In this document: positions 43,514 through 64,000 of the stretch, one piece after another
Layout of the letters: each line of letters starts with the position of its first letter
Numbering within the stretch: position 1 is the first letter of the stretch
NCBI GenBank assembly: GCA_016700095.1
Contig: CP065002.1
Location: forward strand, 304,463 to 368,462
Direction: 5' to 3'
Length of the DNA stretch: 64,000 bases
Origin: Candidatus Woesebacteria bacterium
Lineage (GTDB): Bacteria > Patescibacteriota > Microgenomatia > UBA8517
Translations under genes and position numbers: made by a program
Notes under the pieces: model-generated
The model's input: the letters and a program-made list of their open reading frames with translations, nothing else
What the model was told of the DNA's origin: nothing
The model's database searches: none

Positions 43514-43519
43514 TTATTT

Positions 43520-43765: not shown

Positions 43766-43808
43766 AAACAATAAGAAATATAACATTAAGCAAATATTTA
43801 ATGATTAT

Positions 43809-43885: not shown

Positions 43886-44579
43886 AAAAGATACTTAAGT
43901 ACTCGTTCATGGTTTTACTTGGCACTAGATGTTTAATACTAAACATCTAGTGTTGGAGATCAGAGATTATCGGAAACTAGAGCACATAAATTGAATCCCA
44001 ATTTCCAAAATTAGATGATGTGGTTATCTATGTTTTGTTTGTTGTCAAAAAGCGACTTCGAGATTATAATCTAAAATCTCTAGGTTGAGGGTGCTAACAA
44101 TCAGATGTTTTTATTTTTTTGTTTAGTATAAAAAGCTATGAGTGAAATTACTAAGTTTGTTATTGGTACACGTTTTGTTCAGGATAGATTTGCAGAAATC
44201 CGAAGGGCGCGCGAGACTGAAGATACTTGGATTAGGGCAGTAGATGGTGAATATGGGATCCACAAAAACAGGATAAATGCAGGAAAAATGATGCAAGAAG
44301 AGTTGCGCAGCGTTGAAAAATGGACTCGCAGTTAAACGATGCTTTTTCATTATTAAAACTCTAACGCCTTTTTTCAAACACATCTTAAATACTCCGATAT
44401 AGAATTATATTTCTTTCCCAAGTTTTAGTTTTGTCATTCCTGACAGGATTAATAAATCTGGTGGAGTCAGTCTGAAGTAACAGCTTTGCAGACTGGAAAG
44501 ATGTAACCCGGCTAGTGAGGCAAGCACGGAAATGATAATTGTGCAATTATGGTTATTGAAACTCGTGTTCTTTAATTTA

Positions 44580-44656
44580 GTCCTATCTTACATATTGACC
44601 GCGTGGGCTTGTAGTGAGACAGTTAGTGTATGAGTGAGAAGTGTATTTTGGTGGCG
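44580..44656 (+). repeat. Duplicated leader and 5' end segment (copy 2, functional start of the REC gene)
   Basis: Near-identical to 43809..43885, with about 5 mismatches. Confidence 0.8.
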
Positions 44657-46139: not shown

Positions 46140-46145
46140 ACTAAT

Positions 46146-46502
46146 ATGCCAATAATTACTTCTTTCGAATCACAGGAAAATTCTCCACAAAATATAATTT
46201 CTTCAATCTACCGAGGTCTTATACCAATAATTATTCTGATAGGTGGCATAACACTACTTTCCCTGAATTTACCCGGATGGAGTACGATAATCGGCTTGCC
46301 GACTACCATAATTGGTGCGGTTTTACTTATTTATGAATATGACAATTTCGTTACCAAAAAAGTAGTTTTGCCAAACGAAGAGAAAGTGCGATGTGACAGG
46401 TGTGGAAGATTAACTAGGCCATCGATAAACAGAACCTTGCATGATGGCGTGCTTTGTCCGTACTGTGTGTGGGAGGAAAAAAATTCCAAGAAAGTGAAAT
46501 AA
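46146..46502 (+). CDS. Small membrane protein with C-terminal CxxC...CxxC zinc-ribbon (118 aa)
   Basis: Two TM helices, then 'CDRCGRL...CPYC'. Confidence 0.5.
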   Translation: MPIITSFESQENSPQNIISSIYRGLIPIIILIGGITLLSLNLPGWSTIIGLPTTIIGAVLLIYEYDNFVTKKVVLPNEEKVRCDRCGRLTRPSINRTLHDGVLCPYCVWEEKNSKKVK

Positions 46503-46652
46503 ACCCGCTTCAAGCCTAGATTAATGTAATTATAATACCCTTACAATACAATGCCCGGGTGTATGGCTTATCAGTAGTTAATGGCAACATGCCTTGTGGG
46601 TGAGCTGGTGAGCTATAGATTGCAAGTTAACCCGAGTAAATTTTATAACCCA

Positions 46653-48788
46653 TTAGGGATTAATGGTGGGTGAGAGGACGGGCGTAATGCTTGGACTGGC
46701 ATCGCCTTGATTTTCCTCGACTACGGGTTCAGGTGGCGCATCGGTTTCGTTAAGATCAACCGGTGGAACAAGTATTTGTTCTTGACTTTCCGCAGGAGGT
46801 ACAAGGTTTTGAGACTCTTCTGGCGGTGTTTCAGCTACGGGTTTTGATGCAATCTGTGCTTCAATTTCTTCAAGAGCTTTTCTCGCCACTTCGTAGTCAT
46901 TTGAATTTTTGTCAACCAAAGACATGACTTGTGTAAGTTGAGTTCTTGCCTCTGTTAACTTGTTTTGTTGTTTATATGCAAACGCAAGGTTGTATCGGGC
47001 ATTGGCAAAATCTGGTTTCGTGCGAACTGCTAATTCAAAAAGTTGCTGTGCATTTGCATAATCACCCGCGGCGTAATGGATACCTCCTCTAGCCAGTCGC
47101 AGGTTGGGATTATACGGATCAAGAGCAATTGCCTGGGCAAAAGACTGAGATGCAAAGGTATCGGCACCTTTGGCAAGCGGGATAATGGTTTGATAAGTCC
47201 GAGCTAAAAGTTCCCAATTGCCTGCTCTTGTAGGATTAATAATTACGGTATTTCTTGCTTCACGGATTGCCTGCTGAATAAGTTGTGTAATTCTTTGTCG
47301 ATCTTCTTCGGATAGTTGACCGTTGTTTTGTGATGCCGTAGCCGCCATGGAATTGGCAATTGCCAAATTTACTTGCGAGTATCTGGCGTGATATCTATCA
47401 TCGTAAGGATTTTGGCCAATCGTTTTTTGCAACTGAGAATATGCCTCAACTCCTTGATTGTTGGCGATGAAATCAAGAGATTTTTTAAATGAATACTCGG
47501 CGGATATCAAACCAAACGAACGGAAAAATATCAACCCGACACCGATAAAAACAGGAAGTGAAAGTACTATAGCCGGAGCTCGGGAACTAATACTTTTACC
47601 GGCAGCACCCATCAAATGTACTTCACTGTGCGTTGTGAGTGAGAAACCGGTACTACTTGTTGTCGTAACCAAAGCAAGATAGAAAAATAAAAGCACGGCT
47701 AACAGTTCGGTCGATGGCAGAACGAGCATTAAGATGAGAAGTATCAGCGCCGAAATTAAGCGTCCAAACATTTCCTTGTCGGCTAAGTGTTCATGCTTTT
47801 TACTAATGCTCTCGCGGACAAATTTAATAGCGACGAAAAGTAAAAGAATCGTTGCCGCAACACCCAACATGCCTGTTTCCGCTATAGTTGTCAAGAAATA
47901 AGACGATGCAGTATTGAACTTAATAGTCCAATTATCAGTGTTGTTAAAGGATATTGGTCGATATCGGTTGAAAGCAGTCAGATAATTTCCTGGTCCAACG
48001 CCCATGAGAGGTGATTCCTTAAGTGAATCAACGGCAATTGTCCAACTGGTTTTTGTACTCGGTAATCTAAGTTGAGTTTGTTGTCCGGGCATTAATCTAT
48101 AAATTGATGCCATAAACGCAAATGCGACTACAACACTGCTTGTCCCAAGTAATATTTTCTTTGCTATATTTTTTTCGGTAATGAAAAGCATTACACCAAT
48201 AGGCAAAACAGAGAATAAAAAGATCGCACTCGGTAGATACCCACCAGCAGGGGTAAAGTATTTACTTTGCAAATAAGTAGGTAATCCCTTTGCGCTTGCG
48301 AAAACTCCTGTAAGTGCAATTAGAAGTATCAAAGAAAATACGATTCCAGATACGAAAAGTGATAAGGTTGTTATTTTCTTCCCTTTTTTATCCAACTGGT
48401 TAATCAAGAAATAAAGAAGTGACCCGCCAATTGCCGCCGTTGCCGTACCCGGAATTAGAAAAGCTTCCATTTTACTGGGACTTTTGAAATAAGCTCCAAT
48501 AAGATATACAAAGCCAAAAAGAAGGACGGGAAAATCAAATTTTCCGATAGACCAGGTGAGTTTTCCGTCTGTTATGGTTACTAAAGCTTTTAGAATGATC
48601 ATTAATCCGACACCTATAACCAAAATTAATAGTTTTGTCGGAATCCACGGGTTAGGGGAAAGCGGCGAAAATGCTATAGGCAATAAAAACACTAATCCGA
48701 CAGCTGTATATAAATATGATTTTTCTAGAATATTTTTCATTGTTAGCGATCTAGATACTATGTAATCCTTTTTACCCCAAAAAGTCAA
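46653..48788 (-). CDS. O-antigen ligase/polymerase-like (Wzy_C) membrane protein fused to TPR repeats and a Pro-rich C-terminal tail (711 aa)
   Basis: About 12 TM helices in the N-terminal 430 aa. TPR-like 'AQAIALDPYNPNLRLARGGIHYAAGDYANAQQLFELAVRTKPDFANARYNLAFAYKQQNKLTEA'. C-terminal 'PVAETPPEESQNLVPPAESQEQILVPP'. Confidence 0.65.
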   Translation of the reverse strand: MTFWGKKDYIVSRSLTMKNILEKSYLYTAVGLVFLLPIAFSPLSPNPWIPTKLLILVIGVGLMIILKALVTITDGKLTWSIGKFDFPVLLFGFVYLIGAYFKSPSKMEAFLIPGTATAAIGGSLLYFLINQLDKKGKKITTLSLFVSGIVFSLILLIALTGVFASAKGLPTYLQSKYFTPAGGYLPSAIFLFSVLPIGVMLFITEKNIAKKILLGTSSVVVAFAFMASIYRLMPGQQTQLRLPSTKTSWTIAVDSLKESPLMGVGPGNYLTAFNRYRPISFNNTDNWTIKFNTASSYFLTTIAETGMLGVAATILLLFVAIKFVRESISKKHEHLADKEMFGRLISALILLILMLVLPSTELLAVLLFFYLALVTTTSSTGFSLTTHSEVHLMGAAGKSISSRAPAIVLSLPVFIGVGLIFFRSFGLISAEYSFKKSLDFIANNQGVEAYSQLQKTIGQNPYDDRYHARYSQVNLAIANSMAATASQNNGQLSEEDRQRITQLIQQAIREARNTVIINPTRAGNWELLARTYQTIIPLAKGADTFASQSFAQAIALDPYNPNLRLARGGIHYAAGDYANAQQLFELAVRTKPDFANARYNLAFAYKQQNKLTEARTQLTQVMSLVDKNSNDYEVARKALEEIEAQIASKPVAETPPEESQNLVPPAESQEQILVPPVDLNETDAPPEPVVEENQGDASPSITPVLSPTINP

Positions 48789-48928
48789 GGGTGTTTTAGA
48801 ACAAAGTAAATCTCAATCAAACTCAACATATACTAATATGTATTAATGTATATTATGATATAGAAAGATATCTTACTATAGATAGTATAGACACTTCTAA
48901 TTTTCAATTTTTATTAAGTGTTTGATGA

Positions 48929-49480
48929 TCAAACTTGATTAACTCTATTTGATAGTTTCCGGCTTTGGTACATCCTTTCTGTAAATCCACCTTTTTCAAG
49001 AAAATCGTTCTCAAGTTTGTTAACTAGTTGATCGAGAAGATAATTGGTTTGGTGGATGAGGCAGATGATAGTATTAGCTGTATTCTCTGCGTTATCAAAA
49101 AAACTTGCATATGTCTCATAGGTCTTATCGGACTTATAGGCCAGTTTGCGGATGAATTGAGCTTTAGAAGTATTTTTGTTCCACAATTCGTGTTTATTTT
49201 GGCGCAGATAGTCTTGATAATCCAACAGCAATTCCTCAAGACTACCTCTGGCATTTTGAATTAGTTTAAGTTCCAGTTTTTTGCTTGTAGAATTAATGCT
49301 GTCTTCAGCGATACATTGTTTACATGAACGGGCAGCTCCATTTAATTGACTTGCAAGTTTGTAGTCTTTAATCCACTTATTATAAAAGTAGTAAGTTGCA
49401 TCGGCGATAATTTCTGAGTTTTGGTAACTTTTGAGATTTTTATAGCCTCCGTGAGGAGGAATTAGGTTTGTGTTATTCAT
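48929..49480 (-). CDS. Four-helix-bundle family protein (TIGR02436-like) with N-terminal extension, 183 aa
   Basis: 'SQLNGAARSCKQCIAEDS' and 'NARGSLEELLLDYQDYL' resemble the conserved Q..RAA.S...NIAEG / ..A.GS..E family signature. Confidence 0.45.
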   Translation of the reverse strand: MNNTNLIPPHGGYKNLKSYQNSEIIADATYYFYNKWIKDYKLASQLNGAARSCKQCIAEDSINSTSKKLELKLIQNARGSLEELLLDYQDYLRQNKHELWNKNTSKAQFIRKLAYKSDKTYETYASFFDNAENTANTIICLIHQTNYLLDQLVNKLENDFLEKGGFTERMYQSRKLSNRVNQV

Positions 49481-49508: not shown

Positions 49509-52500
49509 TTACGGCGCTCCTTCAGCCGGACCAAAGTATGCACTTCCAAAGTTCATTATTTGTCTTATTTGATCTTCTGACAGGACGTAGTTATAAATAC
49601 GCACATCATCTATTTGCCCATCGAAATAATTTGTCCCGTCGTAGCCGATGAGAAAATTTGTTGCATTATTTGCACCTATTCCTGCGGTATCGGTACCTGT
49701 TAATATCCCATCTACGTAATATTTAGTTGTCGTATCGTTATTTGTCACTGCAATATGGTGCCATGAACCTGTTAGTACCTTGGCGGAAGCATCGTCTTCG
49801 GTTGTACTTCCGTTATACCAGTAAACGTCGCCGTCTGCATTTATGCCAAGTTCATATTGAGTGCCTTTGGATACAACTACATTGTCCGCTTCGTTGCCGC
49901 CGGTTTTTACCCACGCTGAAATACTAATGTTATTGGGAAGATCCAATACTTCGTCGTCGGTTATCGACACCAAGTCATCCGTATCGTCAAAATCCAAACT
50001 CGCATGATATTTTCCGGTCGTACCGTTATCCCACATCTCATCACCATTTCCGCTGCTACATGTTCCAACTCCGCCACTGTTTGTTCCGCTTCCTCCTTCG
50101 GTTATGGTTCCATTGTTGCCATTTCCACTTGCATCGTTGGCGGTTGATCCTTGGCATTCGTCCAGTCTCCACCAACCGACTGGCTTGCCTCGGTTGTAGT
50201 CGTAGGCTATTTGGGCTGGAGTACGAATGTAATTATAAAACTTTACTTCATCGATAAGCCCGTCGAAGTATTGCGACAATCCAAAACGACTTCTAAATCC
50301 AACTTCAAAGTCACCGCCATTGCTACCAAAGGTGTTGGTTATTGCGTGAGTCGAATCAAGTCGACCGTCAATGTAGATGTTTAGTGTAGTGTAGTTGTAA
50401 GTTGCAGCAACATGATACCATCTACCCGGTGCTAATACTGTTGTGGAGGATTTACTGCTGACAAAGTCTTCGAATTCTAGTGTTCCATCGGTTGCTACTG
50501 AGAATGTCCATTCGTCTCCTACACCGTTGACATATCCGACAATTGTCATTTCATCACTTCCGTTTATTGCGTCGATATTTATCCACGCTTGAGCTGTAAA
50601 TGCGGCGACGTTGGTCGGATCTGTAGTTAAAGATATATATTGAGAACTGTCTCTTTCGAAATCAAGAGCGCTTCCATATTTGCCGGGCACCCAACTTCCT
50701 TCCGTAAAATTAGTGAGTGTTCCATGATATTGATTTGATCCCTTGTTGTAAGTTGTGGTAGTGCCGGTGTTTTCATCAAATGTGTAGTATACGACAGGAG
50801 TGGCATCCGCACCGTCTTCCAATTGGTCTTGTTCGTCATATCCGGTACCGAAATTGACCGCTGCATTTGCATTAACAATTAAGTTCATCTGGTCTTGGGT
50901 GAGTACGGAAGAAAATATCTGCACATCATCGAGAAGTCCGTCAAACGGTCCTGATGAAATATCGTTTGCATCGCCAATTACAAAAGTATCTGCTGTTGCT
51001 GAAGTCATGCTACTTTCTGCGGCGGTTGCTTCGAGACGGCCATTTAGGTATAGATTTATCGTGGTACCGTTATAAGTTAAAAACGCATGATACCAAGTAT
51101 TGGGTGAAAGAACGGTTGTTCCTTCGACTGCATTGTTTGCGCCATCGTGCCAAAGCATGCCAAGTCTGTTGTTGTCTAAGCCTACTGTTAGCCGTGGATT
51201 ATTTGCCGACCTTCTTTGTGTGACCATGTACTGTGTCAGATTTGCCGAATTACCCATACTTCCGGCATCGTGCGAATAAAACCACAAAGAGATACTTACA
51301 TTTGAAGTCACGTTACTGGGGATAGTTGAATCGATCCAGTCGTTACTTCCATCAAATTCCATGGATGAATTTATTTTTCCTTCTGTATTCCATGTTGGGC
51401 AGTCGGACACACCAGCTTGAGGGCAGGCGACACCTGAACCTGCCAGATTACCATTGTAACTTCCAACAGCATCGTAGGAATAATCGCCGGACATTTCGTC
51501 GAAACGGTAACGGGCAATTTGGCTTCCTATTGGGGAACCGCCGATCGGATGTCCACCATTTAAATCTTCCACTATTTGTGAAGCAGTTCTTGCGTAATTA
51601 TAAATTCTGATATCGTCAATTGTGCCTTCCAGGTAATTTGTATCAGCGGTTCTGCCTATTTCAAAATTACTGGCGTTTTCGGCAGTTGCCGTTGTTACCG
51701 CAACGTGTTGCCAGACACCTGCAGTAAGTGTCGTCCCTTGAACACCGTTTATGTAAATGGTTGGACCCGAAAGTCCAGTTGCACTTATTGTTCCACCGGA
51801 TGCGGATATTAAATCGGTGGTGGATGTTAAATTGACGAAATATTCGGTAGTGGTTACCGGTTTTACCCAAAAAGCGACAGTGTTTACTTTGGTTGGGCCA
51901 GTTCCGATATCGATAAAATCAGCGCTGCCGTCTAGGTAAAGACCGGAGCCATAATTTCCCGGCACCCAAGAGTTTTCTGTGATACTTGTCAGCGTTCCGG
52001 TAAAACCATTTGCGGATTTATCACCAACTGAGGTTGTGCCCGTGTTTTCATCCAGAGGATAATAGGCAACAGGACCCGGTGCCCAGTTGTAGAGATTTTG
52101 AATGTCGGCAGGGGAAAGTGTGCGGTTATATATTCTAACATCGTCAATATGTCCGTCGAAATAATTTGCCGCAGAATCATCTGCTCCAATTACGGTTTCA
52201 CCGGCATTATCGTTAATTGATGATGGTATTGTACCTGACTGTGTACTTGGTATTTCAACGCCGTTTGCATATATTTTTAGAGTTTGACTCTCTGCGTTGT
52301 AAGTACCGACGACGTGTGTGAAAATATTTGCCGTTATATCCAGCGCTGTAGTTGCCTGATAATTGCTGGCAGAATCAATGTACATTCGCACCTCGTTTCC
52401 TTCGAGAGCTAATAAATAACTGGTGTTTGTACCATCCCATTTTCCGACAATGTTTTGTGATCCGGTTGTGTCATCGGGATTAATCCAAGCGCTCAAAGTG

Positions 52501-55286
52501 AGACTACCTGTTACCGACAAATGTGCGCTGTCCGCAGCTTCAAAATACTGACTTGTTCCATTAAGTTCACCCGAATTACCAAATTTAGCCGCAGTAAAAG
52601 CTGTAGAGTTGTTATTAGTTAGAGTTGTCGAATTGCCACTTTTATCACTAGGATTTCCCGTCGTCTCATCCATCGGCCAGTAACCGACAAGTCCCTGGAT
52701 TAGAAAGTCTTTGCTTTGTTGACCAAGTATTGCAATAGAACCACTTGCAGCCGTATTTTTGATTGCATCAGATTTAACTTGCTCCGATGTCCTCTCGTAG
52801 TTGTAGGCTTTGAAAGTATCAATAAAACCATGGTAATTGGCAGTGGTAGTACCACCAAGCAACAAATCACTACCGCCTTCGACAGCCGGAGTGGGGTTGA
52901 TGGCAACCAGTGCTGAGTGTTGAGCGCTCAGTGTCCCCGTTGATCCAAAAGCACCTGGATTTTCACTTGATGCTTCGTATTCCCTCTGCGCAGACGACAA
53001 ACGGACATGATTGGTGCTTGTGTTACTTGCCGCCGATTCGGCAGTTATAATACTTAAATAATCAGTTGGTGCTGTCAAAGTATTATCTGTTCGTCTTGTA
53101 TTTGCCATTGCGAGCCACAATATTTTTGACGAACCCCAACCGGGATCGAGACTGGCAGGATCCAGGGTATTGGTTGATGCAAAGACACCGTCGATGGGAT
53201 CAGAAGTATCGTGACCTGTAATCCGGTAGCTATTATGGGCTGAAGCTCTACCCGCTGCGGTTGTTATGTCGACGGTAGCTCCTTCCGAGCCGGCTGCTGT
53301 TTTCCAAAAGATTGTCGTTCTACCTGTTGAGTCACGGGTAGACAATGTGTTCCAGCCGCTTAGTGTGTGAGTGGTTGAGGTTGCCCCCGTCCGAAAGAAA
53401 ATAACAAGTAAATCGCCAGAAGAGATGCCAGAAGGAAGTGATACGGTATGCGTTGTGGCTGAAGTTGATGTTGTTGCACTTATGTTGGTTGCTTGAACTA
53501 TTGGATATGTTTCGGGAGATGCACCTTCTTCGGTTGGTGATCCCGATCCATTAATGCTTGTACCTCGAAGAATACCGTCGATGTAAATAGATATTTCATC
53601 ATCGCCGTCATCGGTGTAACTCATAGAAATATGGTGCCAAGTATTTAATGCAATTGCGTCATCGATTGTCAAAGTCGCGCTATTACCGCTTAGGGAAAGT
53701 GATGCTTGGATATCGGTGACTCCCGAACTTGAGCCCGCAGCAAGTCTTAAATATGTTGCACTACCTTTGTAAAATAATTGACCGTTACTACTTTCTCCTA
53801 GTGAATTTGGTTTGTACCAACCTTGAACTGTGAACCCGTTTGTCAATTGATTGCCGAGATTTAGTGATTCGGAAGTGGTGATGGTTGCAACGTCATCCGT
53901 TCCATCAAACCAGATGCATTTGCCACTTACACACATGTCTTCATTTTGCCAAGTCGGCGCGGCGGTTGTGCTACCAAAAGCCGCGCTGTTTCTATTGACC
54001 GTTGAATCACAAGCGTCGCTTGTGCCGTCAAAACATGTGTTTGATACACCTTCGTCGAATTTCAAAAAGGCTACGGGTGTAGCTCCTTTCTCTTGAGTTC
54101 CCGCAGAAAGATATGTGGCTGGTGCGTTTTGATTACGATATTCGGTTGTGATCCAATCGGTTGAGCGATTGGTGTTGGAAAACCGAAGTTCATCTAAACG
54201 ACCGGCAAAGTATGTATCTTCGTATGGATTATCACTTCTTCCAAGTAAAAAGCTCCCCGCTGAATTAGTAACATTTTGTCCGTTGTCGTCTGTCAGGTCT
54301 AATGCTCCATTATCGTAAATACTTATTGCGGTACCGTTTTTTACGATTGTAAAATAAACCCAAGCATTGCCGTCGAAGGTAAAATAATTACTCGGATGAT
54401 CGGAGTCGTTCATAGAATAATTAATACGTCCATCGTCTAATACATCAATCCACCAACCGTCAGATGCATCCGATGTATTGGAATGTTGCATTACTCCGAT
54501 ATTTGTGTCTGTGGAATAAATCCATCCCGATAGTGTCATATTTCCTGTTCCAATATCAAAACTAGGGGAGTCGGCAATAGTAAAATAATCATTACTGCCA
54601 TCCATATCCATTGCATTACCCACTTTCCCCGCGATTAAATCGGCAGTTGTCATGGTGCCGTTGGCATCGGCGTCGTTACTGTTTTCAGTTGAATCGCATA
54701 GTTCTTTAGTGCCACCTCCGCAGTCGCCGTCGGTTGTAATAGAAGGATCTTCTGACATATGCCAAACACCTTGGTAACTATTCGACCATACACCTTTAGG
54801 ATTTTCTTGATTGGAGGCTCCGGGATTTCCGTAATAGATATATATTTCGGTATCGGCAGCATAAGCAAGAGTTGGAATTTTTACCCAGCTAACCAAAGTT
54901 CCACTCGAAAAGTATTCTATTTCATGATCTAATTTAGTGCCATCTGACGATGTAAAAAATATATCATCACCATCTGTTTGGGCTGCCGTTATATCTGCAT
55001 CGGTTGTCAAACTGATAAGAACGGGAAAATTTGTTAAATCCGATGAACCACTCACCATCGCGTTATCAATCGTTATCGTTTTCCGATAAGCCCAATTTTC
55101 ATCAAACCAAGCAGCCTGAGTATCTTTGGGTTTAATAAATTCCCAGATACGTATGGAAAACAAAATTAAAACTATACTAAGAAAAACAGCAAGTGCTTTG
55201 CGTCGATTCTTTCGAGTGTTAGACATCAGACGACCTATTGTTGTAACTACTTTTTTGATTAACGTATTGTTTCTCATACTACTCAT
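49509..55286 (-). CDS. Giant type-II-anchored surface protein with six LamG (concanavalin-A-like) domains, 1925 aa
   Basis: N-terminal signal anchor 'ALAVFLSIVLILFSIRIW'. Six copies of the LamG C-terminal signature: 'FAGRLDELRFSNTNRS', 'FDGHIDDVRIYNRTLS', 'LEGTIDDIRIYNYART', 'FDGLLDDVQIFSSVLT', 'FDGLIDEVKFYNYIRT', 'FDGQIDDVRIYNYVLS'. Confidence 0.8.
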   Translation of the reverse strand: MSSMRNNTLIKKVVTTIGRLMSNTRKNRRKALAVFLSIVLILFSIRIWEFIKPKDTQAAWFDENWAYRKTITIDNAMVSGSSDLTNFPVLISLTTDADITAAQTDGDDIFFTSSDGTKLDHEIEYFSSGTLVSWVKIPTLAYAADTEIYIYYGNPGASNQENPKGVWSNSYQGVWHMSEDPSITTDGDCGGGTKELCDSTENSNDADANGTMTTADLIAGKVGNAMDMDGSNDYFTIADSPSFDIGTGNMTLSGWIYSTDTNIGVMQHSNTSDASDGWWIDVLDDGRINYSMNDSDHPSNYFTFDGNAWVYFTIVKNGTAISIYDNGALDLTDDNGQNVTNSAGSFLLGRSDNPYEDTYFAGRLDELRFSNTNRSTDWITTEYRNQNAPATYLSAGTQEKGATPVAFLKFDEGVSNTCFDGTSDACDSTVNRNSAAFGSTTAAPTWQNEDMCVSGKCIWFDGTDDVATITTSESLNLGNQLTNGFTVQGWYKPNSLGESSNGQLFYKGSATYLRLAAGSSSGVTDIQASLSLSGNSATLTIDDAIALNTWHHISMSYTDDGDDEISIYIDGILRGTSINGSGSPTEEGASPETYPIVQATNISATTSTSATTHTVSLPSGISSGDLLVIFFRTGATSTTHTLSGWNTLSTRDSTGRTTIFWKTAAGSEGATVDITTAAGRASAHNSYRITGHDTSDPIDGVFASTNTLDPASLDPGWGSSKILWLAMANTRRTDNTLTAPTDYLSIITAESAASNTSTNHVRLSSAQREYEASSENPGAFGSTGTLSAQHSALVAINPTPAVEGGSDLLLGGTTTANYHGFIDTFKAYNYERTSEQVKSDAIKNTAASGSIAILGQQSKDFLIQGLVGYWPMDETTGNPSDKSGNSTTLTNNNSTAFTAAKFGNSGELNGTSQYFEAADSAHLSVTGSLTLSAWINPDDTTGSQNIVGKWDGTNTSYLLALEGNEVRMYIDSASNYQATTALDITANIFTHVVGTYNAESQTLKIYANGVEIPSTQSGTIPSSINDNAGETVIGADDSAANYFDGHIDDVRIYNRTLSPADIQNLYNWAPGPVAYYPLDENTGTTSVGDKSANGFTGTLTSITENSWVPGNYGSGLYLDGSADFIDIGTGPTKVNTVAFWVKPVTTTEYFVNLTSTTDLISASGGTISATGLSGPTIYINGVQGTTLTAGVWQHVAVTTATAENASNFEIGRTADTNYLEGTIDDIRIYNYARTASQIVEDLNGGHPIGGSPIGSQIARYRFDEMSGDYSYDAVGSYNGNLAGSGVACPQAGVSDCPTWNTEGKINSSMEFDGSNDWIDSTIPSNVTSNVSISLWFYSHDAGSMGNSANLTQYMVTQRRSANNPRLTVGLDNNRLGMLWHDGANNAVEGTTVLSPNTWYHAFLTYNGTTINLYLNGRLEATAAESSMTSATADTFVIGDANDISSGPFDGLLDDVQIFSSVLTQDQMNLIVNANAAVNFGTGYDEQDQLEDGADATPVVYYTFDENTGTTTTYNKGSNQYHGTLTNFTEGSWVPGKYGSALDFERDSSQYISLTTDPTNVAAFTAQAWINIDAINGSDEMTIVGYVNGVGDEWTFSVATDGTLEFEDFVSSKSSTTVLAPGRWYHVAATYNYTTLNIYIDGRLDSTHAITNTFGSNGGDFEVGFRSRFGLSQYFDGLIDEVKFYNYIRTPAQIAYDYNRGKPVGWWRLDECQGSTANDASGNGNNGTITEGGSGTNSGGVGTCSSGNGDEMWDNGTTGKYHASLDFDDTDDLVSITDDEVLDLPNNISISAWVKTGGNEADNVVVSKGTQYELGINADGDVYWYNGSTTEDDASAKVLTGSWHHIAVTNNDTTTKYYVDGILTGTDTAGIGANNATNFLIGYDGTNYFDGQIDDVRIYNYVLSEDQIRQIMNFGSAYFGPAEGAP

Positions 55287-58200
55287 TTAAAGCGTCAACT
55301 ATCCACCAGTTGAATTCGATATCTTGGGTGAGAACTCCATCAATTCCAACTACAAATGTGTTGGTGCATTCATTTTCTCCACTTTCGTCTAGGTTGGAAA
55401 TCTCCTTTTGCAAAAGATCGGAACCTTCACATATGAGTTTTCCTTTGACATACAGAACTTTGTTGAGAGTAGAGGATGTCGGGGTGATATAGATTAAACT
55501 ATTTTGTGTTAGTTGTTTTGTTTTTATTTCGACAGAGTTTGTTCCTGCTAACACTATTGCAGATCCGATTGATGCACTTGACTCAGCTGATGCAACTTCA
55601 GGTACAGAAACTGTATCATTGTTTTCAACTGGTTGAGCGATGTCAGCATTTGATATAGTTAGTTTGTCTGTGGTAACTTCCTGTGCAGTTACTTGTCCTT
55701 CGACTTCTAAATTGCCTGCAATTGTGACGTTGCCTTCGGTATCAATATTAACCTTTCCTGCCATCAGATAAAGCGGTTGTGTTCCGGTTGCTTGAATCGA
55801 AAGGGGAGCATCAAGTGTGCTTATCGCGTTAACAGCATTTCCGGTTGATTCACTTATTGTTGCACTTATTACGATATCGTTTCCCAGCACCAACGATTTA
55901 TTAATGGATAGACTTTCAACTGTCGCAAGCCCTGTTACATAAATATTTTCGACACCGAGATTGGAAATGGATACATCACCATCGGTATTTTCCATTTCCC
56001 AACCAAGTGAAGACTTCATCGTATTTTGGTCTTCCACGATATCCAAAAGTAGATTTTCGATTGATTCGATCGAAACCGAAGTATCGCTTGGGTCAACAAC
56101 ATCGTTGTCGATAGTTATACTTTCTTGATTGCTTGGTGAATTATTAGCAAGGTCGCTAGAGAGATTGACCGAATTATCGATAAATACAAGTATTGTTTCT
56201 GATGGATTAGCAGGATCCCACTTTTCAAGGGCACTTCCGATGGAATAACCAGTTTGATTTGCTTTCATTGCCATTCCAGGAACATCGGATGAGGCAAGTC
56301 TGTCTCCTTCGTGTATTTCATCCGAAGCAGGATCAATCTTGACGGGTACTCTGCCTGCCAGCGCAACCGGTAAAGCATAGTCAGCCCACTCAAGTACATC
56401 TTCGCCCATAATTTGATGTGCTTGCGAGGAAACGATACCGATAACTTTATCACCATATTTTTGATTGGATTTAGTTACCCCGAAGGTATTTTCATTTATG
56501 GGATTACCTATTTGCACAATATCTCCTGCCTGCGGGATATCTTCATTTCCGATTACAGGGTACCATTCTGCAAGATCGGCGGGATTAGGATTACATTCGA
56601 CTAATTGATAAACGGGATCGCCGTTAACACTTGTCGACTGGAAACATAGGTTGCCTGAAGTTTCGGGAGTGTTGTCGGTTTGTTCGGCGATACTGCCAAC
56701 ATACGTATTGCCTTCATTATCCACCACAAATTTATTTTCACCGGAGGACAGAGCGGCAATTAGATTATCGGCATGTGTGTCAACAATTAGTTCACCATCA
56801 ACATTGACGTTGCCATTTAATGATATATTCTGACTGGTTAAATCTAAGTTTGTATTATTTCCGGAAAGGAGAGTGTTGCCCGACCCGTCTTTAATTGTAA
56901 TGTCACCTGATCCATCGAGCGCAATTAGGGTTTGCGGATCGTAATAGCCGGGATTAATAAATACTAATATTTGGCCGATTGAATCCGGATCGGCATTTTC
57001 ATATCTGGCAAGAGCGGTCCCCAAAATCATTCCCGCTTGATTGGCTTTCGCGGCTACACCGGCGATAGAGCTTGTTGTAACCATATCTCCCGGTTCAATT
57101 GTTCCGTTTTGGCTGGACACATTTACCAGAATACGTCCGGAAAGTGCTACCGCCACTTCTTTGACACTCCGTGGATCATTTGCTTGCTTCCATCCGCCAA
57201 GAAGTACTCCTGGTTTAGTTGAAATTGCTCCGATTAATTTACTTCTATCTGTATTGGTAGCTTTCTTGACAAATTCTTCTTCAAATCTATCTGAATCCAT
57301 ACCTTGGGGTACAGGGTTAAAATCAAGAGATACGACGTCTCCTGCAACTATATTTATATCTGAGGTTGGGAAATTTTCTGCAATATCGTCAACAGTAAAA
57401 CTAGACGAAATTCCATATACAGTTCCTGCACTTCTTGCCGCATCTATACAGTCGTCAGCCGTATTAAGAGTATCATCTGCGCAAATTGCTCCGTATGCCA
57501 GAAGTCCCGACCCGCCAATATTTGTAGCATCGGTAGCTCCAAGTACCACGTCAGCCGTGTCGGTTATTATTCCGACACTTGCTCCGTCATTGTTAAATAC
57601 GAAATCTCCTGTGCCATATGTTTTCAGAGTTAAATTATTATTTTCAAAACTCTCTCCGGATTCTATTGTTAGTGGACCATAACTTTCTATCTTGCTTGTT
57701 GTTTGGTTGGTTAACACGATATCGTAAGCTATGGATACATCACCCGAAGCTGTAAAGGCATGTGGCAAGGCGGATGTGATCAAGGATTGGCTAACTGTAA
57801 ATACATCACTTCCGTTATCTGACAGGGCCATTATATTTCCGATATTTCCATACTGTCCGACATTTAAGCTGAAAAGATCACCGGTTGCATATATTTCTGT
57901 AGAACCTGAAGGTGCCCATTCCAAGTCAATCAAGCTACCCGTTGTAAGTGTTGTTGATGTGGATTGTAAATAGATAGCATCACCTGAAGTCAGAGCGTCT
58001 GCAGATAAATCGATACCCTTTCCTTCCGTAATCGTGTCGGCATTTAAGCCTAATAGTTTTCCGGTTGTAATTCCACTACTTGCAGTTGTCAAATCAAATA
58101 AGGTGTCTGCCGCATCGGTTGAACCGTCAAAAGTCAGATAGGTATTTGTACCGTCACCGAGCGTGAATGCAGTTGTTGAGGTAGAGTCAAGATCGAGATA

Positions 58201-61200
58201 GTTATCAAGGTTTATTCCGCCACCCGTAAAGTTAAATTCGTCTGTGTCAAGATAACTTATGCTTCCCGAATTGGTTGCATCCGAGGCATAGAAGGTGAGT
58301 GTCGGATCATTTGTATCATTTGCTCCATCACCAATTCTTACAGTATTTGTACTTACATCTACCGAGAACGGAGCAACTAATGAGTCTGCACCGGTTATAC
58401 CGATAGACAAATCTGTAGCTGCTGAACTTGGACTTAAAGTATTGGTTGTCAAAACCCATTCGGTACTGCCACCTGTGGCTACATCACCCCAATTAGTCCC
58501 ATCAAAAACTTGCAATTTGTTATCGTCAGTATCCCAGGCCAGATATCCCTCACCGCCACCTGTTATGGCTGTTAGGGCTGTCGTTTGTGGAAGCTTTAGT
58601 CCTTGTGCGGTTGCGTCATTATGTATTATTGCCGACAAGTCAAGCAATGCTCCGTCTGCAAATGTAGCTGTGCTTGCAAAAGTTGCAACACCATCAATAT
58701 CGAGCGTTCCGTCGACTTCTAAAATATCTTCAATATATAAATCATCATCACTTGATGCAGTTGTGGCAGTTCCACTATCACTTATCGCGTTATAAGCAGT
58801 TCCTGTGATTCCGCCTATATTAAATACGTTTGTGTTAGCAAACACGATTTGTCCACCGGCTGCCGTAAGGTTAACATCTGCTGCTGATGTTATGTTCACA
58901 TCACCTGTTGTAGTTGTTGAGAGAGTGAGATTTCCGCTTGCCGCAGTAACGTTACTTGCACCTGTTCCATCAATCGAGAAGGTTCCTGTTGATAGCATAT
59001 CGAATGTACCTGTGACATCAATATCTAGATTTGCGGCGGCGTTTATATCAATTAGTCCTGCAGAGGTGAGATCGAGTTCGCCTGAGGTAATTGTTGAAAT
59101 TTGTAATTGTCCACCAGTTACACTCACGTTGCTTGCTAATGCTCCATCTATCGAGAAGGCTCCACCTGCATCTAAGGTTAGTGCATCATTTGCATCTATA
59201 TCTATATCTCCGCCTGTACCTGTTGCATTTATGTCAATCGCGGCAGTACCTGTGCCATTACTATTTAGGCTTAGAGTTGCACTAGTTCCGCCACTAACAG
59301 TAAGTGCCAAAGCGTCAGCTGCAACTTCACTTGATATAATGTTAACTCCACCTGTACCTGTTACATCAATATCTTCAGTGCTTGCCGTTGTTATGTCTAT
59401 TCCGCCGGTATCAGATGATATGACTATTGAATCGGCTACGTTTTCACCGCTTGAAAGAATTAAAGATCCAGCTGCGGAATCAAGAGTTAGGTCGCCAGCC
59501 GTTGTGCTCCAAACACTAGTTGCGTTTCCGGTAAGAGTTATTGCTTGTGAAGTACCGGCAATTACGGAAAGTGCTCCACCTGCAGGTCCCGTTATGGAAG
59601 CAGCTCCATCAGCATCCACAAAAGTAAGGTCTCCTGTTGTACCTATGTTTAAGTAATCAGTTTGGCCAAGTCTTGTAGTTCCATCATTAAGGAAAGTTGC
59701 AAAGGCAGTTCCATTATCTTCAATTGTGAAATCACCTGTCGTGGTTAGATCAAAGGCGAGTCCACTTGCATCATCAATCTCCATATTTACATCCACTGCA
59801 GTGAGGGAGAAAGCATATACATTGTCAAATGTAGGTTGTGCACCAGCTACTGTTGTCCATCCGCAGTTGGTTTCAGAAACATCGCAGACCAAATCATCTC
59901 CCCAGTACAGATCTCCCGATGCACTTCCTGCTGAAGCTGCATTGAAGCCAAAGACATTGTCAGTATCTGCATCATCATTAAGGCCTAAGGTGGTGCCATC
60001 AACAGACAAATTGCCTGTGATATTAACATCACCTACATTGGCATTATCTGTAATGGTCATTAGATCATTACCCGAGGTATCTTCAAAGGTTAGAGTACCT
60101 GTTGTACTTTCAAACATCCTTACTCCATCAAAGAGTAAAAAGTTTGCATCAAGGTCAAGTGCTGTAACAATATCAGTATCACTTAAATCAATACCTGTTG
60201 TTATCCCTCCTGCTTCACTTACAAAGGAGAGACCAGTTGCTACTGCCGTATCCGTATCTGAATTATCAAGGACAAGTAGAGCTTCGGTTGCCCCACTACT
60301 TGCTGCATTATCAATTACCAATCCGTTTTGAGTACCACTTGAGCTGGCATTGGTTAAAGTAAGGGTAGTGGAGTTGGCATTTGCTGTTCCACTAAGAGCC
60401 TGGTTTACTGCGAGTAAACTATCCGAATCAAGAGTAATTGTCAGGTCGTCGGTTCCAGCCGGTGTAAACCCTACATTACCTGTAAAGGTAAAATCATAGT
60501 CCTGGTTAACAGCAACATCATCTGCATTAACGGTAATGCCATTACCTGCTCCAACGGTAAAGGTGGTATCACCATCTGCACCGACAAGGACATTATCTGC
60601 TCCACCTGTAAGGCCACTTCCTGCAACTGCGTCACCTAGTAGCCTTACTGTAAAGTCAAGGTTTTCATCACCATCATCACCGTTAGTTAGATTGGTTAGT
60701 ATATTGCCATCACTACTGGTGAACCTTAAGATGTTGGCATCCACAACAGAGTAGGTATCAGTATCATCATCGGCTATCGTCCAGGAAGAGAAAGCACTTA
60801 CACTGGTTGTCCATCCGCAGTTGGTTTCAGAAACATCGCAGACCAAATCATCTCCCCAGTACAGATCTCCCGATGCACTTCCTGCTGAAGCTGCATTGAA
60901 GCTAAAGACATTGTCAGTATCTGCATCATCATTAAGGCCTAAGGTGGTGCCATCAACAGACAAATTGCCTGTGATATTAACATCACCCACATTGGCATTA
61001 TCTGTAATGGTCATTAGATCATTACCCGAGGTATCTTCAAAGGTTAGAGTACCTGTTGTACTTTCAAACATCCTTACTCCATCAAAGAGTAAAAAGTTTG
61101 CATCAAGGTCAAGTGCTGTAACAATATCAGTATCACTTAAATCAATACCTGTTGTTATCCCTCCTGCTTCACTTACAAAGGAGAGACCAGTTGCTACTGC

Positions 61201-61347
61201 CGTATCCGTATCTGAATTATCAAGGACAAGTAGAGCTTCGGTTGCCCCACTACTTGCTGCATTATCAATTACCAATCCGTTTTGAGTACCACTTGAGCTG
61301 GCATTGGTTAAAGTAAAGGGTAGTGGAGTTGGCATTTGCTGTTCCAC
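55279..61347 (-). CDS. C-terminal part of a giant repeat adhesin-like surface protein (2022 aa in this frame). The N-terminal region consists of 318-aa tandem repeats. The C-terminal ~1400 aa is non-repetitive and T/S/G/D/N-rich.
   Basis: Overlaps the downstream LamG gene by 8 nt. Repeat unit 'TLTLTNASSSGTQNGLVIDNAASSG...DLYWGDDLVCDVSETNCGWTT...'. The apparent start at 61347 is an artefact of the frameshift at ~61317. Confidence 0.75.
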   Translation of the reverse strand: MEQQMPTPLPFTLTNASSSGTQNGLVIDNAASSGATEALLVLDNSDTDTAVATGLSFVSEAGGITTGIDLSDTDIVTALDLDANFLLFDGVRMFESTTGTLTFEDTSGNDLMTITDNANVGDVNITGNLSVDGTTLGLNDDADTDNVFSFNAASAGSASGDLYWGDDLVCDVSETNCGWTTSVSAFSSWTIADDDTDTYSVVDANILRFTSSDGNILTNLTNGDDGDENLDFTVRLLGDAVAGSGLTGGADNVLVGADGDTTFTVGAGNGITVNADDVAVNQDYDFTFTGNVGFTPAGTDDLTITLDSDSLLAVNQALSGTANANSTTLTLTNASSSGTQNGLVIDNAASSGATEALLVLDNSDTDTAVATGLSFVSEAGGITTGIDLSDTDIVTALDLDANFLLFDGVRMFESTTGTLTFEDTSGNDLMTITDNANVGDVNITGNLSVDGTTLGLNDDADTDNVFGFNAASAGSASGDLYWGDDLVCDVSETNCGWTTVAGAQPTFDNVYAFSLTAVDVNMEIDDASGLAFDLTTTGDFTIEDNGTAFATFLNDGTTRLGQTDYLNIGTTGDLTFVDADGAASITGPAGGALSVIAGTSQAITLTGNATSVWSTTAGDLTLDSAAGSLILSSGENVADSIVISSDTGGIDITTASTEDIDVTGTGGVNIISSEVAADALALTVSGGTSATLSLNSNGTGTAAIDINATGTGGDIDIDANDALTLDAGGAFSIDGALASNVSVTGGQLQISTITSGELDLTSAGLIDINAAANLDIDVTGTFDMLSTGTFSIDGTGASNVTAASGNLTLSTTTTGDVNITSAADVNLTAAGGQIVFANTNVFNIGGITGTAYNAISDSGTATTASSDDDLYIEDILEVDGTLDIDGVATFASTATFADGALLDLSAIIHNDATAQGLKLPQTTALTAITGGGEGYLAWDTDDNKLQVFDGTNWGDVATGGSTEWVLTTNTLSPSSAATDLSIGITGADSLVAPFSVDVSTNTVRIGDGANDTNDPTLTFYASDATNSGSISYLDTDEFNFTGGGINLDNYLDLDSTSTTAFTLGDGTNTYLTFDGSTDAADTLFDLTTASSGITTGKLLGLNADTITEGKGIDLSADALTSGDAIYLQSTSTTLTTGSLIDLEWAPSGSTEIYATGDLFSLNVGQYGNIGNIMALSDNGSDVFTVSQSLITSALPHAFTASGDVSIAYDIVLTNQTTSKIESYGPLTIESGESFENNNLTLKTYGTGDFVFNNDGASVGIITDTADVVLGATDATNIGGSGLLAYGAICADDTLNTADDCIDAARSAGTVYGISSSFTVDDIAENFPTSDINIVAGDVVSLDFNPVPQGMDSDRFEEEFVKKATNTDRSKLIGAISTKPGVLLGGWKQANDPRSVKEVAVALSGRILVNVSSQNGTIEPGDMVTTSSIAGVAAKANQAGMILGTALARYENADPDSIGQILVFINPGYYDPQTLIALDGSGDITIKDGSGNTLLSGNNTNLDLTSQNISLNGNVNVDGELIVDTHADNLIAALSSGENKFVVDNEGNTYVGSIAEQTDNTPETSGNLCFQSTSVNGDPVYQLVECNPNPADLAEWYPVIGNEDIPQAGDIVQIGNPINENTFGVTKSNQKYGDKVIGIVSSQAHQIMGEDVLEWADYALPVALAGRVPVKIDPASDEIHEGDRLASSDVPGMAMKANQTGYSIGSALEKWDPANPSETILVFIDNSVNLSSDLANNSPSNQESITIDNDVVDPSDTSVSIESIENLLLDIVEDQNTMKSSLGWEMENTDGDVSISNLGVENIYVTGLATVESLSINKSLVLGNDIVISATISESTGNAVNAISTLDAPLSIQATGTQPLYLMAGKVNIDTEGNVTIAGNLEVEGQVTAQEVTTDKLTISNADIAQPVENNDTVSVPEVASAESSASIGSAIVLAGTNSVEIKTKQLTQNSLIYITPTSSTLNKVLYVKGKLICEGSDLLQKEISNLDESGENECTNTFVVGIDGVLTQDIEFNWWIVDALNE

Positions 61348-64000
61348 TAAGAGCCTGGTTTACTGCGAGTAAACTATCCGAATCAAGAGTAATTGTCAGG
61401 TCGTCGGTTCCAGCCGGTGTAAACCCTACATTACCTGTAAAGGTAAAATCATAGTCCTGGTTAACAGCAACATCATCTGCATTAACGGTAATGCCATTAC
61501 CTGCTCCAACGGTAAAGGTGGTATCACCATCTGCACCGACAAGGACATTATCTGCTCCACCTGTAAGGCCACTTCCTGCAACTGCGTCACCTAGTAGCCT
61601 TACTGTAAAGTCAAGGTTTTCATCACCATCATCACCGTTAGTTAGATTGGTTAGTATATTGCCATCACTACTGGTGAACCTTAAGATGTTGGCATCCACA
61701 ACAGAGTAGGTATCAGTATCATCATCGGCTATCGTCCAGGAAGAGAAAGCACTTACACTGGTTGTCCATCCGCAGTTGGTTTCAGAAACATCGCAGACCA
61801 AATCATCTCCCCAGTACAGATCTCCCGATGCACTTCCTGCTGAAGCTGCATTGAAGCTAAAGACATTGTCAGTATCTGCATCATCATTAAGGCCTAAGGT
61901 GGTGCCATCAACAGACAAATTGCCTGTGATATTAACATCACCCACATTGGCATTATCTGTAATGGTCATTAGATCATTACCCGAGGTATCTTCAAAGGTT
62001 AGAGTACCTGTTGTACTTTCAAACATCCTTACTCCATCAAAGAGTAAAAAGTTTGCATCAAGGTCAAGTGCTGTAACAATATCAGTATCACTTAAATCAA
62101 TACCTGTTGTTATCCCTCCTGCTTCACTTACAAAGGAGAGACCAGTTGCTACTGCCGTATCCGTATCTGAATTATCAAGGACAAGTAGAGCTTCGGTTGC
62201 CCCACTACTTGCTGCATTATCAATTACCAATCCGTTTTGAGTACCACTTGAGCTGGCATTGGTTAAAGTAAGGGTAGTGGAGTTGGCATTTGCTGTTCCA
62301 CTAAGAGCCTGGTTTACTGCGAGTAAACTATCCGAATCAAGAGTAATTGTCAGGTCGTCGGTTCCAGCCGGTGTAAACCCTACATTACCTGTAAAGGTAA
62401 AATCATAGTCCTGGTTAACAGCAACATCATCTGCATTAACGGTAATGCCATTACCTGCTCCAACGGTAAAGGTGGTATCACCATCTGCACCGACAAGGAC
62501 ATTATCTGCTCCACCTGTAAGGCCACTTCCTGCAACTGCGTCACCTAGTAGCCTTACTGTAAAGTCAAGGTTTTCATCACCATCATCACCGTTAGTTAGA
62601 TTGGTTAGTATATTGCCATCACTACTGGTGAACCTTAAGATGTTGGCATCCACAACAGAGTAGGTATCAGTATCATCATCGGCTATCGTCCAGGAAGAGA
62701 AAGCACTTACACTGGTTGTCCATCCGCAGTTGGTTTCAGAAACATCGCAGACCAAATCATCTCCCCAGTACAGATCTCCCGATGCACTTCCTGCTGAAGC
62801 TGCATTGAAGCCAAAGACATTGTCAGTATCTGCATCATCATTAAGGCCTAAGGTGGTGCCATCAACAGACAAATTGCCTGTGATATTAACATCACCCACA
62901 TTGGCATTATCTGTAATGGTCATTAGATCATTACCCGAGGTATCTTCAAAGGTTAGAGTACCTGTTGTACTTTCAAACATCCTTACTCCATCAAAGAGTA
63001 AAAAGTTTGCATCAAGGTCAAGTGCTGTAACAATATCAGTATCACTTAAATCAATACCTGTTGTTATCCCTCCTGCTTCACTTACAAAGGAGAGACCAGT
63101 TGCTACTGCCGTATCCGTATCTGAATTATCAAGGACAAGTAGAGCTTCGGTTGCCCCACTACTTGCTGCATTATCAATTACCAATCCGTTTTGAGTACCA
63201 CTTGAGCTGGCATTGGTTAAAGTAAGGGTAGTGGAGTTGGCATTTGCTGTTCCACTAAGAGCCTGGTTTACTGCGAGTAAACTATCCGAATCAAGAGTAA
63301 TTGTCAGGTCATCGGTTCCAGCCGGTGTAAACCCTACATTACCTGTAAAGGTAAAATCATAGTCCTGGTTAACAGCAACATCATCTGCATTAACGGTAAT
63401 GCCATTACCTGCTCCAACGGTAAAGGTGGTATCACCATCTGCACCGACAAGGACATTATCTGCTCCACCTGTAAGGCCACTTCCTGCAACTGCGTCACCT
63501 AGTAGCCTTACTGTAAAGTCAAGGTTTTCATCACCATCATCACCGTTAGTTAGATTGGTTAGTATATTGCCATCACTACTGGTGAACCTTAAGATGTTGG
63601 CATCCACAACAGAGTAGGTATCAGTATCATCATCGGCTATCGTCCAGGAAGAGAAAGCACTTACACTGGTTGTCCATCCGCAGTTGGTTTCAGAAACATC
63701 GCAGACCAAATCATCTCCCCAGTACAGATCTCCCGATGCACTTCCTGCTGAAGCTGCATTGAAGCCAAAGACATTGTCAGTATCTGCATCATCATTAAGG
63801 CCTAAGGTGGTGCCATCAACAGACAAATTGCCTGTGATATTAACATCACCTACATTGGCATTATCTGTAATGGTCATTAGATCATTACCCGAGGTATCTT
63901 CAAAGGTTAGAGTACCTGTTGTACTTTCAAACATCCTTACTCCATCAAAGAGTAAAAAGTTTGCATCAAGGTCAAGTGCTGTAACAATATCAGTATCACT
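59850..64000. repeat. Tandem array of 954-bp (318-codon) repeats, at least 4.3 copies, nearly identical. It runs off the window.
   Basis: Identical antisense ORFs start at 60536, 61491, 62445 and 63399 (spacing 955/954/954). Another set starts at 59867, 60821, 61776 and 62730. Confidence 0.9.
61265..64000 (-). pseudogene. Upstream part of the same giant repeat adhesin gene, disconnected by a +1 frameshift. It continues beyond the window end.
   Basis: Same 318-aa repeats, with 889 aa visible. Its C-terminal 'TLYFNQCQLKWYSKRIGN' diverges from the repeat consensus 'TLTLTNASSSGTQ' exactly where one repeat copy has 'gtaaaggg' instead of 'gtaaggg'. Confidence 0.6.

Follow-up and report, generated by a model that had tools for sequence, protein, structure and literature searches.

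A repeat array in a giant gene split by one base

The region analyzed here is a 64-kb window (64,000 nucleotides, the whole stretch of DNA under study) of contig CP065002.1 from Candidatus Woesebacteria bacterium, which ends inside a giant minus-strand gene that encodes, among other regions, repeated modules of 318 amino acids (aa). From position 59851 to the window end (64000), this gene contains 4.35 head-to-tail copies of a 954-bp unit, with start-to-start spacings of 954, 955, 954 and 954 bp and, in a repeat search, 99-100% identity between the copies, a similarity far beyond chance. When the sequence was compared with itself at the repeat offset, base by base, the identity began at 59847-59852, which marks the proximal boundary of the array, and persisted to the window end. 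The output of Tandem Repeats Finder was empty because the longest period it considers is 500, shorter than the 954-bp unit. At least four near-perfect copies of a 954-bp tandem repeat had been called previously, from the sequence alone and prior to any database search (hereafter, the sequence-only reading), and the present analysis bears out this call. The coordinates of the units and of the other features discussed below are given in Table 1.

Table 1. Positions, within the window, of the repeat units, the frameshift, the C-terminal domains and the adjacent gene
Feature	Position	Strand	Description
Unit U5	63668-64000	minus	partial, C-terminal 111 codons
Unit U6	62714-63667	minus	full copy
Unit U7	61760-62713	minus	full copy
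Unit U8	60805-61759	minus	955 bp, contains the +1 base
Unit U9	59851-60804	minus	full 954-bp copy
A-run with extra A	61315-61317	minus (gene)	in unit U8; 3 A instead of 2 in all other copies; ~aa 3865 of the repaired protein
Premature stop of the upstream ORF	61267-61265	minus	follows the frameshifted tail ...STTLYFNQCQLKWYSKRIGN
Downstream ORF made by the frameshift	55279-61347	minus	GTG start, 2,022 aa in the ORF list; deposited as QQS39312.1 (P0010), 2,018 aa
Cys-loop tail of the last unit	59851-59913	minus	DLYWGDDLVCDVSETNCGWTT; Cys at unit residues 307 and 314; recurs every 954 bp upstream
Unique C-terminal region	55279-59850	minus	1,523 aa; final motif EFNWWIVD
First Peptidase_G2-like domain	56938-57465	minus	aa ~5149-5324; motif D-I-A-E-N-F-P
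Second Peptidase_G2-like domain	56161-56673	minus	aa ~5413-5583; motif D-L-A-E-W-Y-P
LamG-protein gene	49509-55286	minus	1,925 aa; signal-anchor helix, DUF2341, 8 LamG (Laminin_G_3) domains

With the copies in register and the one inserted base (see below) removed, 4 of the 954 positions vary, 3 of them synonymously and the fourth with a Gly to Ser change at unit codon 286; copy-specific SNPs lie at unit positions 99, 184 and 598. The sequence-only reading had also drawn attention to identical antisense open reading frames (ORFs) every 954-955 bp. Plus-strand ORFs of 154 aa indeed recur with this period (60821-61285, 61776-62240 and 62730-63194) but, because the gene sits on the minus strand, these are merely antisense shadows of the repeat. 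An exact 35-mer spanning the unit junction had no match in the JGI metagenome contigs.

The array had been expected to run past the window, and the deposited proteins of this genome demonstrate that it does. An exhaustive protein search with one unit identified a 3,881-aa protein (P0130, QQS39313.1) with 11 matched stretches, the C-terminal end of which, ...STTLYFNQCQLKWYSKRIGN, is the same frameshifted tail that is encoded at 61325-61268 of the window. The unique C-terminus of the gene, in turn, is a 100% match to a 2,018-aa protein (P0010, QQS39312.1, 'hypothetical protein IPM62_01735', Candidatus Woesebacteria bacterium). The two proteins have consecutive accessions and are encoded on one 1,274,238-bp contig of a metagenome-derived genome. 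Joined across the frameshift, they make a protein of 5,876 aa, with the window portion starting from aa 2971, so that the repeats are in-frame modules (954 = 3 x 318) of a single giant protein, as had been proposed.

In this repaired protein, there are full units at aa 840-1157 and aa 1541-1858, each flanked by unique stretches, and seven more in tandem at aa 2128-4353. The whole gene, as assembled, thus encompasses 9 full units (7 tandem and 2 dispersed) plus 3 additional copies of the Cys-containing tail of the unit, which brings the number of such tails in the gene to 12; a separate tail copy precedes every block of units. The order of the Gly/Ser variant along the 12 tails is G G G S S S S G G S S G, and such two-allele variants, common to several copies, fit recombination between real copies.

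Near-identical 954-bp repeats that extend over at least 6.7 kb in tandem, or 10.7 kb with the dispersed copies counted, are hard for metagenome assembly, and the count of seven tandem copies derives from a single assembly. An assembler might have created the array or distorted its copy number, in which case the true locus would hold one unit or some other number of them. We give this explanation very little credence because the units occupy three distinct unique contexts (aa 840, aa 1541 and aa 2128-4353), the copies share recombining variants as opposed to random noise, and independent homologues from other assemblies, described below, show similar near-identical repeats. Furthermore, assemblers are far more prone to collapse tandem repeats than to invent them. 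A complete artefact is very unlikely, and a miscount of the copies is possible.

The periodicity of the array is not exact, contrary to what had been stated; the 954-955 bp spacing had been noticed in the sequence-only reading, but its consequence was overlooked. The single 955-bp spacing results from an extra A in unit U8, where GTAAGGG becomes GTAAAGGG (on the sense strand, CCCTTAC becomes CCCTTTAC), and this +1 insertion breaks the ORF. One minus-strand frame is open from 64000 to the premature stop, and another from 61359 to the stop codon at 55281-55279; once the extra base is deleted, there is a single unbroken frame with 2,906 codons inside the window. Therefore, the gene is split into two annotated ORFs in the deposited genome. 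The upstream ORF (QQS39313.1) starts outside the window, and the downstream ORF (QQS39312.1) consists of 1.5 units and the unique C-terminus, without a signal or anchor of its own.

The extra A is either a consensus error or a genuine inactivating mutation. Both frames are free of other stops or decay across 17.6 kb, which argues against an old pseudogene. If the A is real, this would be a pseudogene or a switched-off gene, with a product of at most 3,881 aa that would end before the C-terminal chaperone-type domains and the tip, and recombination between neighboring copies could delete the mutated unit and restore the frame, acting as a crude on/off switch. We regard this as a realistic but somewhat doubtful scenario. 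The insertion is confined to one of the nine otherwise near-identical copies, the two halves are deposited as separate genes, and no uninterrupted near-identical version of the protein is found among 1.84 billion representatives; in addition, the classic context of Nanopore errors is a long homopolymer, unlike the run extended from two to three bases in this case. These observations are balanced by the probable history of the assembly, Nanopore-based with short-read polishing: multi-mapping short reads polish near-identical repeats poorly, which makes single-base errors plausible. The genome probably comes from a study of Danish activated sludge that built closed Patescibacteria genomes from Nanopore reads, with Racon, medaka and Illumina reads used for the polishing (PMC8012365).

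Two recoding events were considered and set aside. A -1 slip at CCCUUUA has the wrong phase, and a shift in the -1 direction would not restore the frame. Programmed frameshifting would need a +1 shift at CUU-U, a sequence that resembles the prfB slip codon, yet there is neither a stop codon nor a stimulator at this site, and we judge this mechanism unlikely.

Domains and relatives of the repaired protein

The repaired protein starts with a MerR-type helix-turn-helix (HTH) domain at aa 13-57 (PF00376 at aa 13-49, with 40.5 bits for a cut-off of 28.2; PF13411, with 32.7 bits for a cut-off of 21.6), with the MerR_1 match limited to positions 2-46 of the 69 in the profile. The HTH is followed by a Lys/Arg-rich linker and then, at aa ~100-120, by the sole segment with strong hydrophobicity in the whole protein, which corresponds to one transmembrane (TM) helix. 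The remaining protein is rich in Thr, Asp, Gly and Ser and strongly acidic (867 Asp and Glu residues vs 116 Lys and Arg), and the 32 cysteines are strictly paired. This charge distribution, together with the presence of a single helix, suggests that the N-terminus is cytoplasmic and that the rest of the protein, about 5,750 residues, is located outside the cell.

MerR family regulators are soluble dimers with a C-terminal coiled-coil and an effector-binding domain. The giant protein possesses the N-terminal winged HTH but not the soluble-dimer layout, given that the HTH is followed by the linker, the TM helix and ~5,750 extracellular-type residues. Because the HTH is shared with the MerR regulators whereas the architecture is not, the deposited name is misleading: the 3,881-aa, mostly extracellular QQS39313.1 is called 'MerR family DNA-binding transcriptional regulator' from a 45-aa HTH. 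The protein could be a membrane-tethered transcription factor, with a functional HTH and with the giant fibre as an 'antenna', such that attachment, tension or cleavage would alter or release the HTH, but we consider this quite improbable. If this was the case, a bacterium equipped with very few conventional regulators would link contact with a host cell directly to gene expression, and the copy number of the units would tune the reach of the sensor.

The unit has the Thr/Ser/Gly/Asp/Asn-rich makeup that the sequence-only reading ascribed to it (T 14.5, D 14.2, G 11.3, S 8.8 and N 8.5%), and each copy terminates with DLYWGDDLVCDVSETNCGWTT as described there. This terminal motif, LYWG..C-x6-CG, is present, with both Cys retained, in 10 other proteins. 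The two Cys had been proposed to form a disulfide or a metal site. Given that the motif is conserved, that all Cys are paired and that the region is predicted to be extracellular, the Cys-x6-Cys loop is probably closed by a disulfide, a bond that we infer from these features.

The unit did not match any model in Pfam, NCBIfam or PHROGs; the Pfam matches to DUF5807, PLipase_C_C and Big_2 were rejected because weak scores had been added up across many identical copies and not one stretch passes by itself. Likewise, no relative of the unit was detected in 50,697 phage genomes (tblastn) or in IMG/VR. The unit is rare: just 9 proteins matched it in the indexed search, and 109 of the 1.84 billion representatives did so at E <= 1e-3. 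Most of these cover only part of the unit, that is, residues ~1-110, 100-280 or 240-318. Therefore, the unit is a mosaic, pieced together from about six smaller sub-modules that are found on their own in other proteins.

Structure prediction of one unit had been proposed as a check for an Ig-like (immunoglobulin-like) or beta-helix fold, and neither fold was confirmed. A single-sequence AlphaFold2 model was uninformative, with a predicted local distance difference test score (pLDDT) of 43. With an alignment of 54 sequences, the pLDDT rose to 77, with a predicted template modeling score (pTM) of 0.64 and values above 87 for residues ~90-240/260; the resulting model is almost devoid of secondary structure as assigned by DSSP.

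The unique C-terminal region has more than 200 homologues, mostly from candidate phyla radiation (CPR) bacteria/Patescibacteria or among unnamed metagenome proteins. Within this region, there are two paralogous domains of ~170 aa each that resemble Peptidase_G2. A profile built from 17 sequences of this domain matched, in the PDB, the autochaperone domain of phi29 gp12 (3gqh, E 7e-4; 6qz9, E 8e-4), with the alignment to 3gqh beginning right where the released domain does, at DFAEYF, and also the chaperone domain D4 of a tailspike (Dpo31, E 7e-3). In gp12, the conserved Asp...Glu mark the self-cleavage site (D-F-A-E). The D-x-A-E signature is invariant in the family alignment (D33, A35, E36), and both copies in the giant protein keep it (DIAENF and DLAEWY). 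The Pfam Peptidase_G2 model (PF11962) itself is matched by 7 of the 17 homologous domains, with the best E of 1e-7. PA5oct-like Pseudomonas jumbo phages encode a virion or baseplate protein that is 40% identical, over 106 aa, to the second domain of the giant protein (tblastn, E 1e-5). There was no match to the C-terminus in a phmmer search of the PDB or in the PHROGs and NCBIfam searches. In the profile search of the PDB, the Aureispira grappling-hook protein (5,898 aa) reached no better than E 8.4. Overall, the motif and the profile matches support a relationship with Peptidase_G2, one that falls below the curated threshold for this particular protein.

The closest relative is a WWE3 genome (L001), which has the same HTH-TM-giant layout at positions 7028-20915, where an ORF longer than 4,629 aa contains many unit-like modules. 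These modules are 67% identical to the unit at the amino acid level and no more than 86% identical to one another at the nucleotide level. Because the L001 modules are diverged, the near-identity of the units in the gene analyzed here is lineage-specific and young, or else maintained by gene conversion. This supports, as recent or lineage-specific, the expansion or concerted evolution that the sequence-only reading had put forward. Near-identical internal repeats, at least 95% identical, are also present in two unrelated, independent homologues, with periods of 292 aa (P0131) and 405 aa (P0132). The first of these is a 1,599-aa protein with five near-identical 292-aa repeats that contain the first sub-module of the unit. 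The start of this protein falls within an intein splicing domain (PF14890, aa 28-83, 38.5 bits), and some giant fibres of this family thus appear to carry inteins.

The N-terminal architecture also recurs. One or two copies of the MerR HTH, followed by a TM helix and a giant ectodomain, were identified in 10 homologues (P0016, P0052, P0059, P0074, P0109, P0111, P0136, P0159, P0168 and P0194), one of which (P0074) carries S74. Together with L001, these CPR/Patescibacteria proteins are true homologues of the giant protein; their ectodomains are long, T/D/G-rich mosaics of diverged modules, and many of them possess the same C-terminal twin domain. Among the homologues, near-identical long repeats were seen only in P0131 and P0132. 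In other homologues (P0141, P0149 and P0026), the MerR HTH is replaced by a phage-integrase SAM-like N-terminal domain. As far as could be found in the literature searched, there is no description of an HTH-TM-fibre-G2 architecture in CPR bacteria, and this is the less expected part of the present findings. The repeat array as such is a well-known phenomenon, ordinary biology in a new host protein, and the protein is an extreme case of a recognizable type of repetitive surface protein.

The genomic neighborhood

Immediately downstream of the giant gene, in the same orientation, lies the LamG-protein gene (Table 1), the start of which overlaps the stop of the giant gene by 8 nucleotides (ATGAGTAG). 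This overlap suggests translational coupling, and the two genes are probably co-expressed. In NCBIfam, part of the LamG protein resembles the TafC fimbrial protein family, with a score well under the cut-off.

Elsewhere in the window are genes for giant HTH-TM-GT2 proteins, GT4 enzymes, methyltransferases, PTPS-related membrane proteins, an O-antigen-ligase-like TPR protein, a response regulator and a Cache-domain protein. Neither phage genes nor tRNA genes were detected in the 64-kb window, and no part of it reaches the gathering threshold of an Rfam family. In particular, there are no phage structural genes among the neighbors of the giant gene that could make up the gene set of a phage virion. 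Given the presence of envelope and glycosylation genes and the lack of phage genes, this is a cell-envelope island and not a prophage.

Several other genes of the window are of interest in their own right. Three giants encoded on the plus strand, at 582-8333 (2,583 aa), 10008-14063 (1,351 aa) and 16114-26643 (3,509 aa), begin with a transposase-type HTH (HTH_28, HTH_23, HTH_Tnp_1) that is followed by hydrophobic helices, GT2 and a long C-terminal region, which in two of the three contains DUF2341. The succession of a DNA-binding domain, a membrane segment and a giant protein echoes the repeat gene. Between two of these giant GT2 genes, on the minus strand (9336-9941), there is a gene for a 201-aa protein with an N-terminal MerR HTH and a C-terminal segment of very high hydropathy (3.4, at aa ~178), which looks like a miniature HTH-plus-membrane version of the giants. 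Three paralogous PTPS_related membrane proteins are encoded on the plus strand (26670-28094, 33377-36586 and 36623-39616) amid GT4 enzymes and at least four class-I methyltransferases. From its gene content, this stretch looks like an island for modification of surface glycans or glycoproteins, located beside the giant fibre gene. The cumulative GC skew climbs steadily to ~47-48 kb and then drops, precisely at the plus-to-minus switch in gene orientation (~46000-49000); this peak could be a replication landmark or reflect coding-strand bias. There are no ORFs of 120 aa or more in 14657-16114 and in 43097-44630.

A candidate contact fibre

Taken together, these observations make it fairly probable that the array consists of recently amplified shaft modules of one membrane-anchored, probably trimeric, tail-fibre-like surface protein of Candidatus Woesebacteria, an ultra-small CPR bacterium. 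The protein would be anchored by its N-terminus, with the MerR-type HTH in the cytoplasm, one TM helix, and the ~5,750 acidic, Thr/Asp/Gly-rich residues projecting outward. In characterized members of the G2 family, such as phi29 gp12, the domain helps fold trimeric fibres and is then cleaved off. Because the G2 domain drives the folding of trimeric fibres in phages, a long, probably trimeric, tail-fibre-like product is most likely, and the two C-terminal G2-type domains would drive the folding of such an appendage. The distal, unique C-terminal region might contact the surface of a host or substrate, perhaps jointly with the co-transcribed, lectin-like LamG protein. The length of the fibre would be set by the 318-aa units, and unequal homologous recombination or replication slippage between the copies would both make and homogenize the array and alter the copy number.

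Several results weigh against this interpretation. The score of the giant protein for Peptidase_G2 is 19.4 bits, compared to the gathering score of 25, and the profile matches to the PDB are marginal (E ~1e-3). Foldseek searches with the unit model gave no significant neighbor, the best E being 0.9 in the PDB and 0.04 in BFVD. At the top of the weak matches are trimeric phage fibres (the HylP triple-stranded beta-helix, the tail fibres gp37 and gp34, and S74 proteins), which is no more than suggestive, and a fibre or trimer fold is not established by these structural matches. The role in adhesion, and with it the label of an adhesin, is proposed by analogy. Finally, because the gene as assembled is broken by the frameshift, cells of this population might not produce the full-length protein.

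The protein could also be a monomeric repetitive adhesin or matrix protein, arranged as beads on a string or as a solenoid, with the phage-like C-terminal domains adopted without a trimerizing function. AlphaFold2 did give a confident monomer model for residues ~90-260 of the unit (pLDDT >87, pTM 0.64), giant repetitive adhesins are common in bacteria, and the trimeric state is one that we infer. We nevertheless consider a monomer unlikely: none of the Ig-like, cadherin, VCBS or RTX domains in Pfam passes on its own, the model contains almost no intrachain secondary structure, and the sole recognizable extracellular domains come from a family whose characterized members fold trimeric fibres.

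By analogy, the trimeric, membrane-anchored fibre that we favor would work most like two kinds of known proteins, the MAT fibres of Bdellovibrio and giant repeat adhesins that change the length of their stalk. The latter include repeat proteins of staphylococci and streptococci as well as Bap/LapA-type adhesins, huge extracellular proteins with stalks of near-identical repeats and recombination-prone copy numbers. The giant protein shares with these the long stalk of near-identical repeats but shows no sequence similarity to them, and its anchor is an N-terminal TM helix behind a DNA-binding-type domain. Among Pfam matches to the giant protein, there are no Ig-like, cadherin, VCBS, RTX/T1SS or LPXTG features and no YadA-type C-terminal beta-barrel anchor as in trimeric autotransporters; the AtaA stalk is among the Foldseek matches only at an insignificant E of 9. 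The Giant1-5 proteins of Apilactobacillus kunkeei provide another comparison as giant repetitive surface proteins (PMC12863079).

The mosaic adhesive trimer (MAT) fibres of Bdellovibrio bacteriovorus are cell-encoded, tail-fibre-like proteins of ~1,000 aa that have been proposed to recognize prey or host and that share a conserved N-terminal domain; a subset of these contains a self-cleaving chaperone domain of the S74 type (PMC10769870). Similarly to the MAT fibres, the giant protein is a cell-encoded, tail-fibre-like surface protein with mosaic modules and a variable C-terminal end, although in this case both the trimer and the surface location are only predicted, and the lifestyle of Bdellovibrio, which lives on other bacteria, can be likened to that of the present bacterium. 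Unlike the MAT fibres, it is about 5,900 aa long, has an HTH-TM N-terminus and two G2-type domains, and has undergone very recent tandem amplification. With the pre-neck appendage protein gp12 of phage phi29 (3gqh, 3suc, 6qz9), it shares the C-terminal domain with D-x-A-E at the first residues of the released domain; this similarity is marginal, and the giant protein differs from gp12 in that the domain is duplicated, is followed by ~290 more residues and occurs in a non-virion context. No match to the beta-helix body of gp12 was found in this protein.

CPR bacteria/Patescibacteria are believed to live attached to other microbes, and the molecules that mediate this contact are largely unknown. 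The locus described here provides a concrete and complete candidate for such a contact protein, 5,876 aa in length, with a membrane anchor, a shaft that can be extended, folding domains of the phage type and, next to it, a gene for a lectin-like partner. The shaft would be extendable in steps of 318 aa over very short evolutionary times. The split of the gene by one base within a repeat illustrates how giant genes can be hidden from catalogues. More generally, the fusion of a DNA-binding domain, a TM helix and a giant ectodomain is a recurring pattern in these bacteria.

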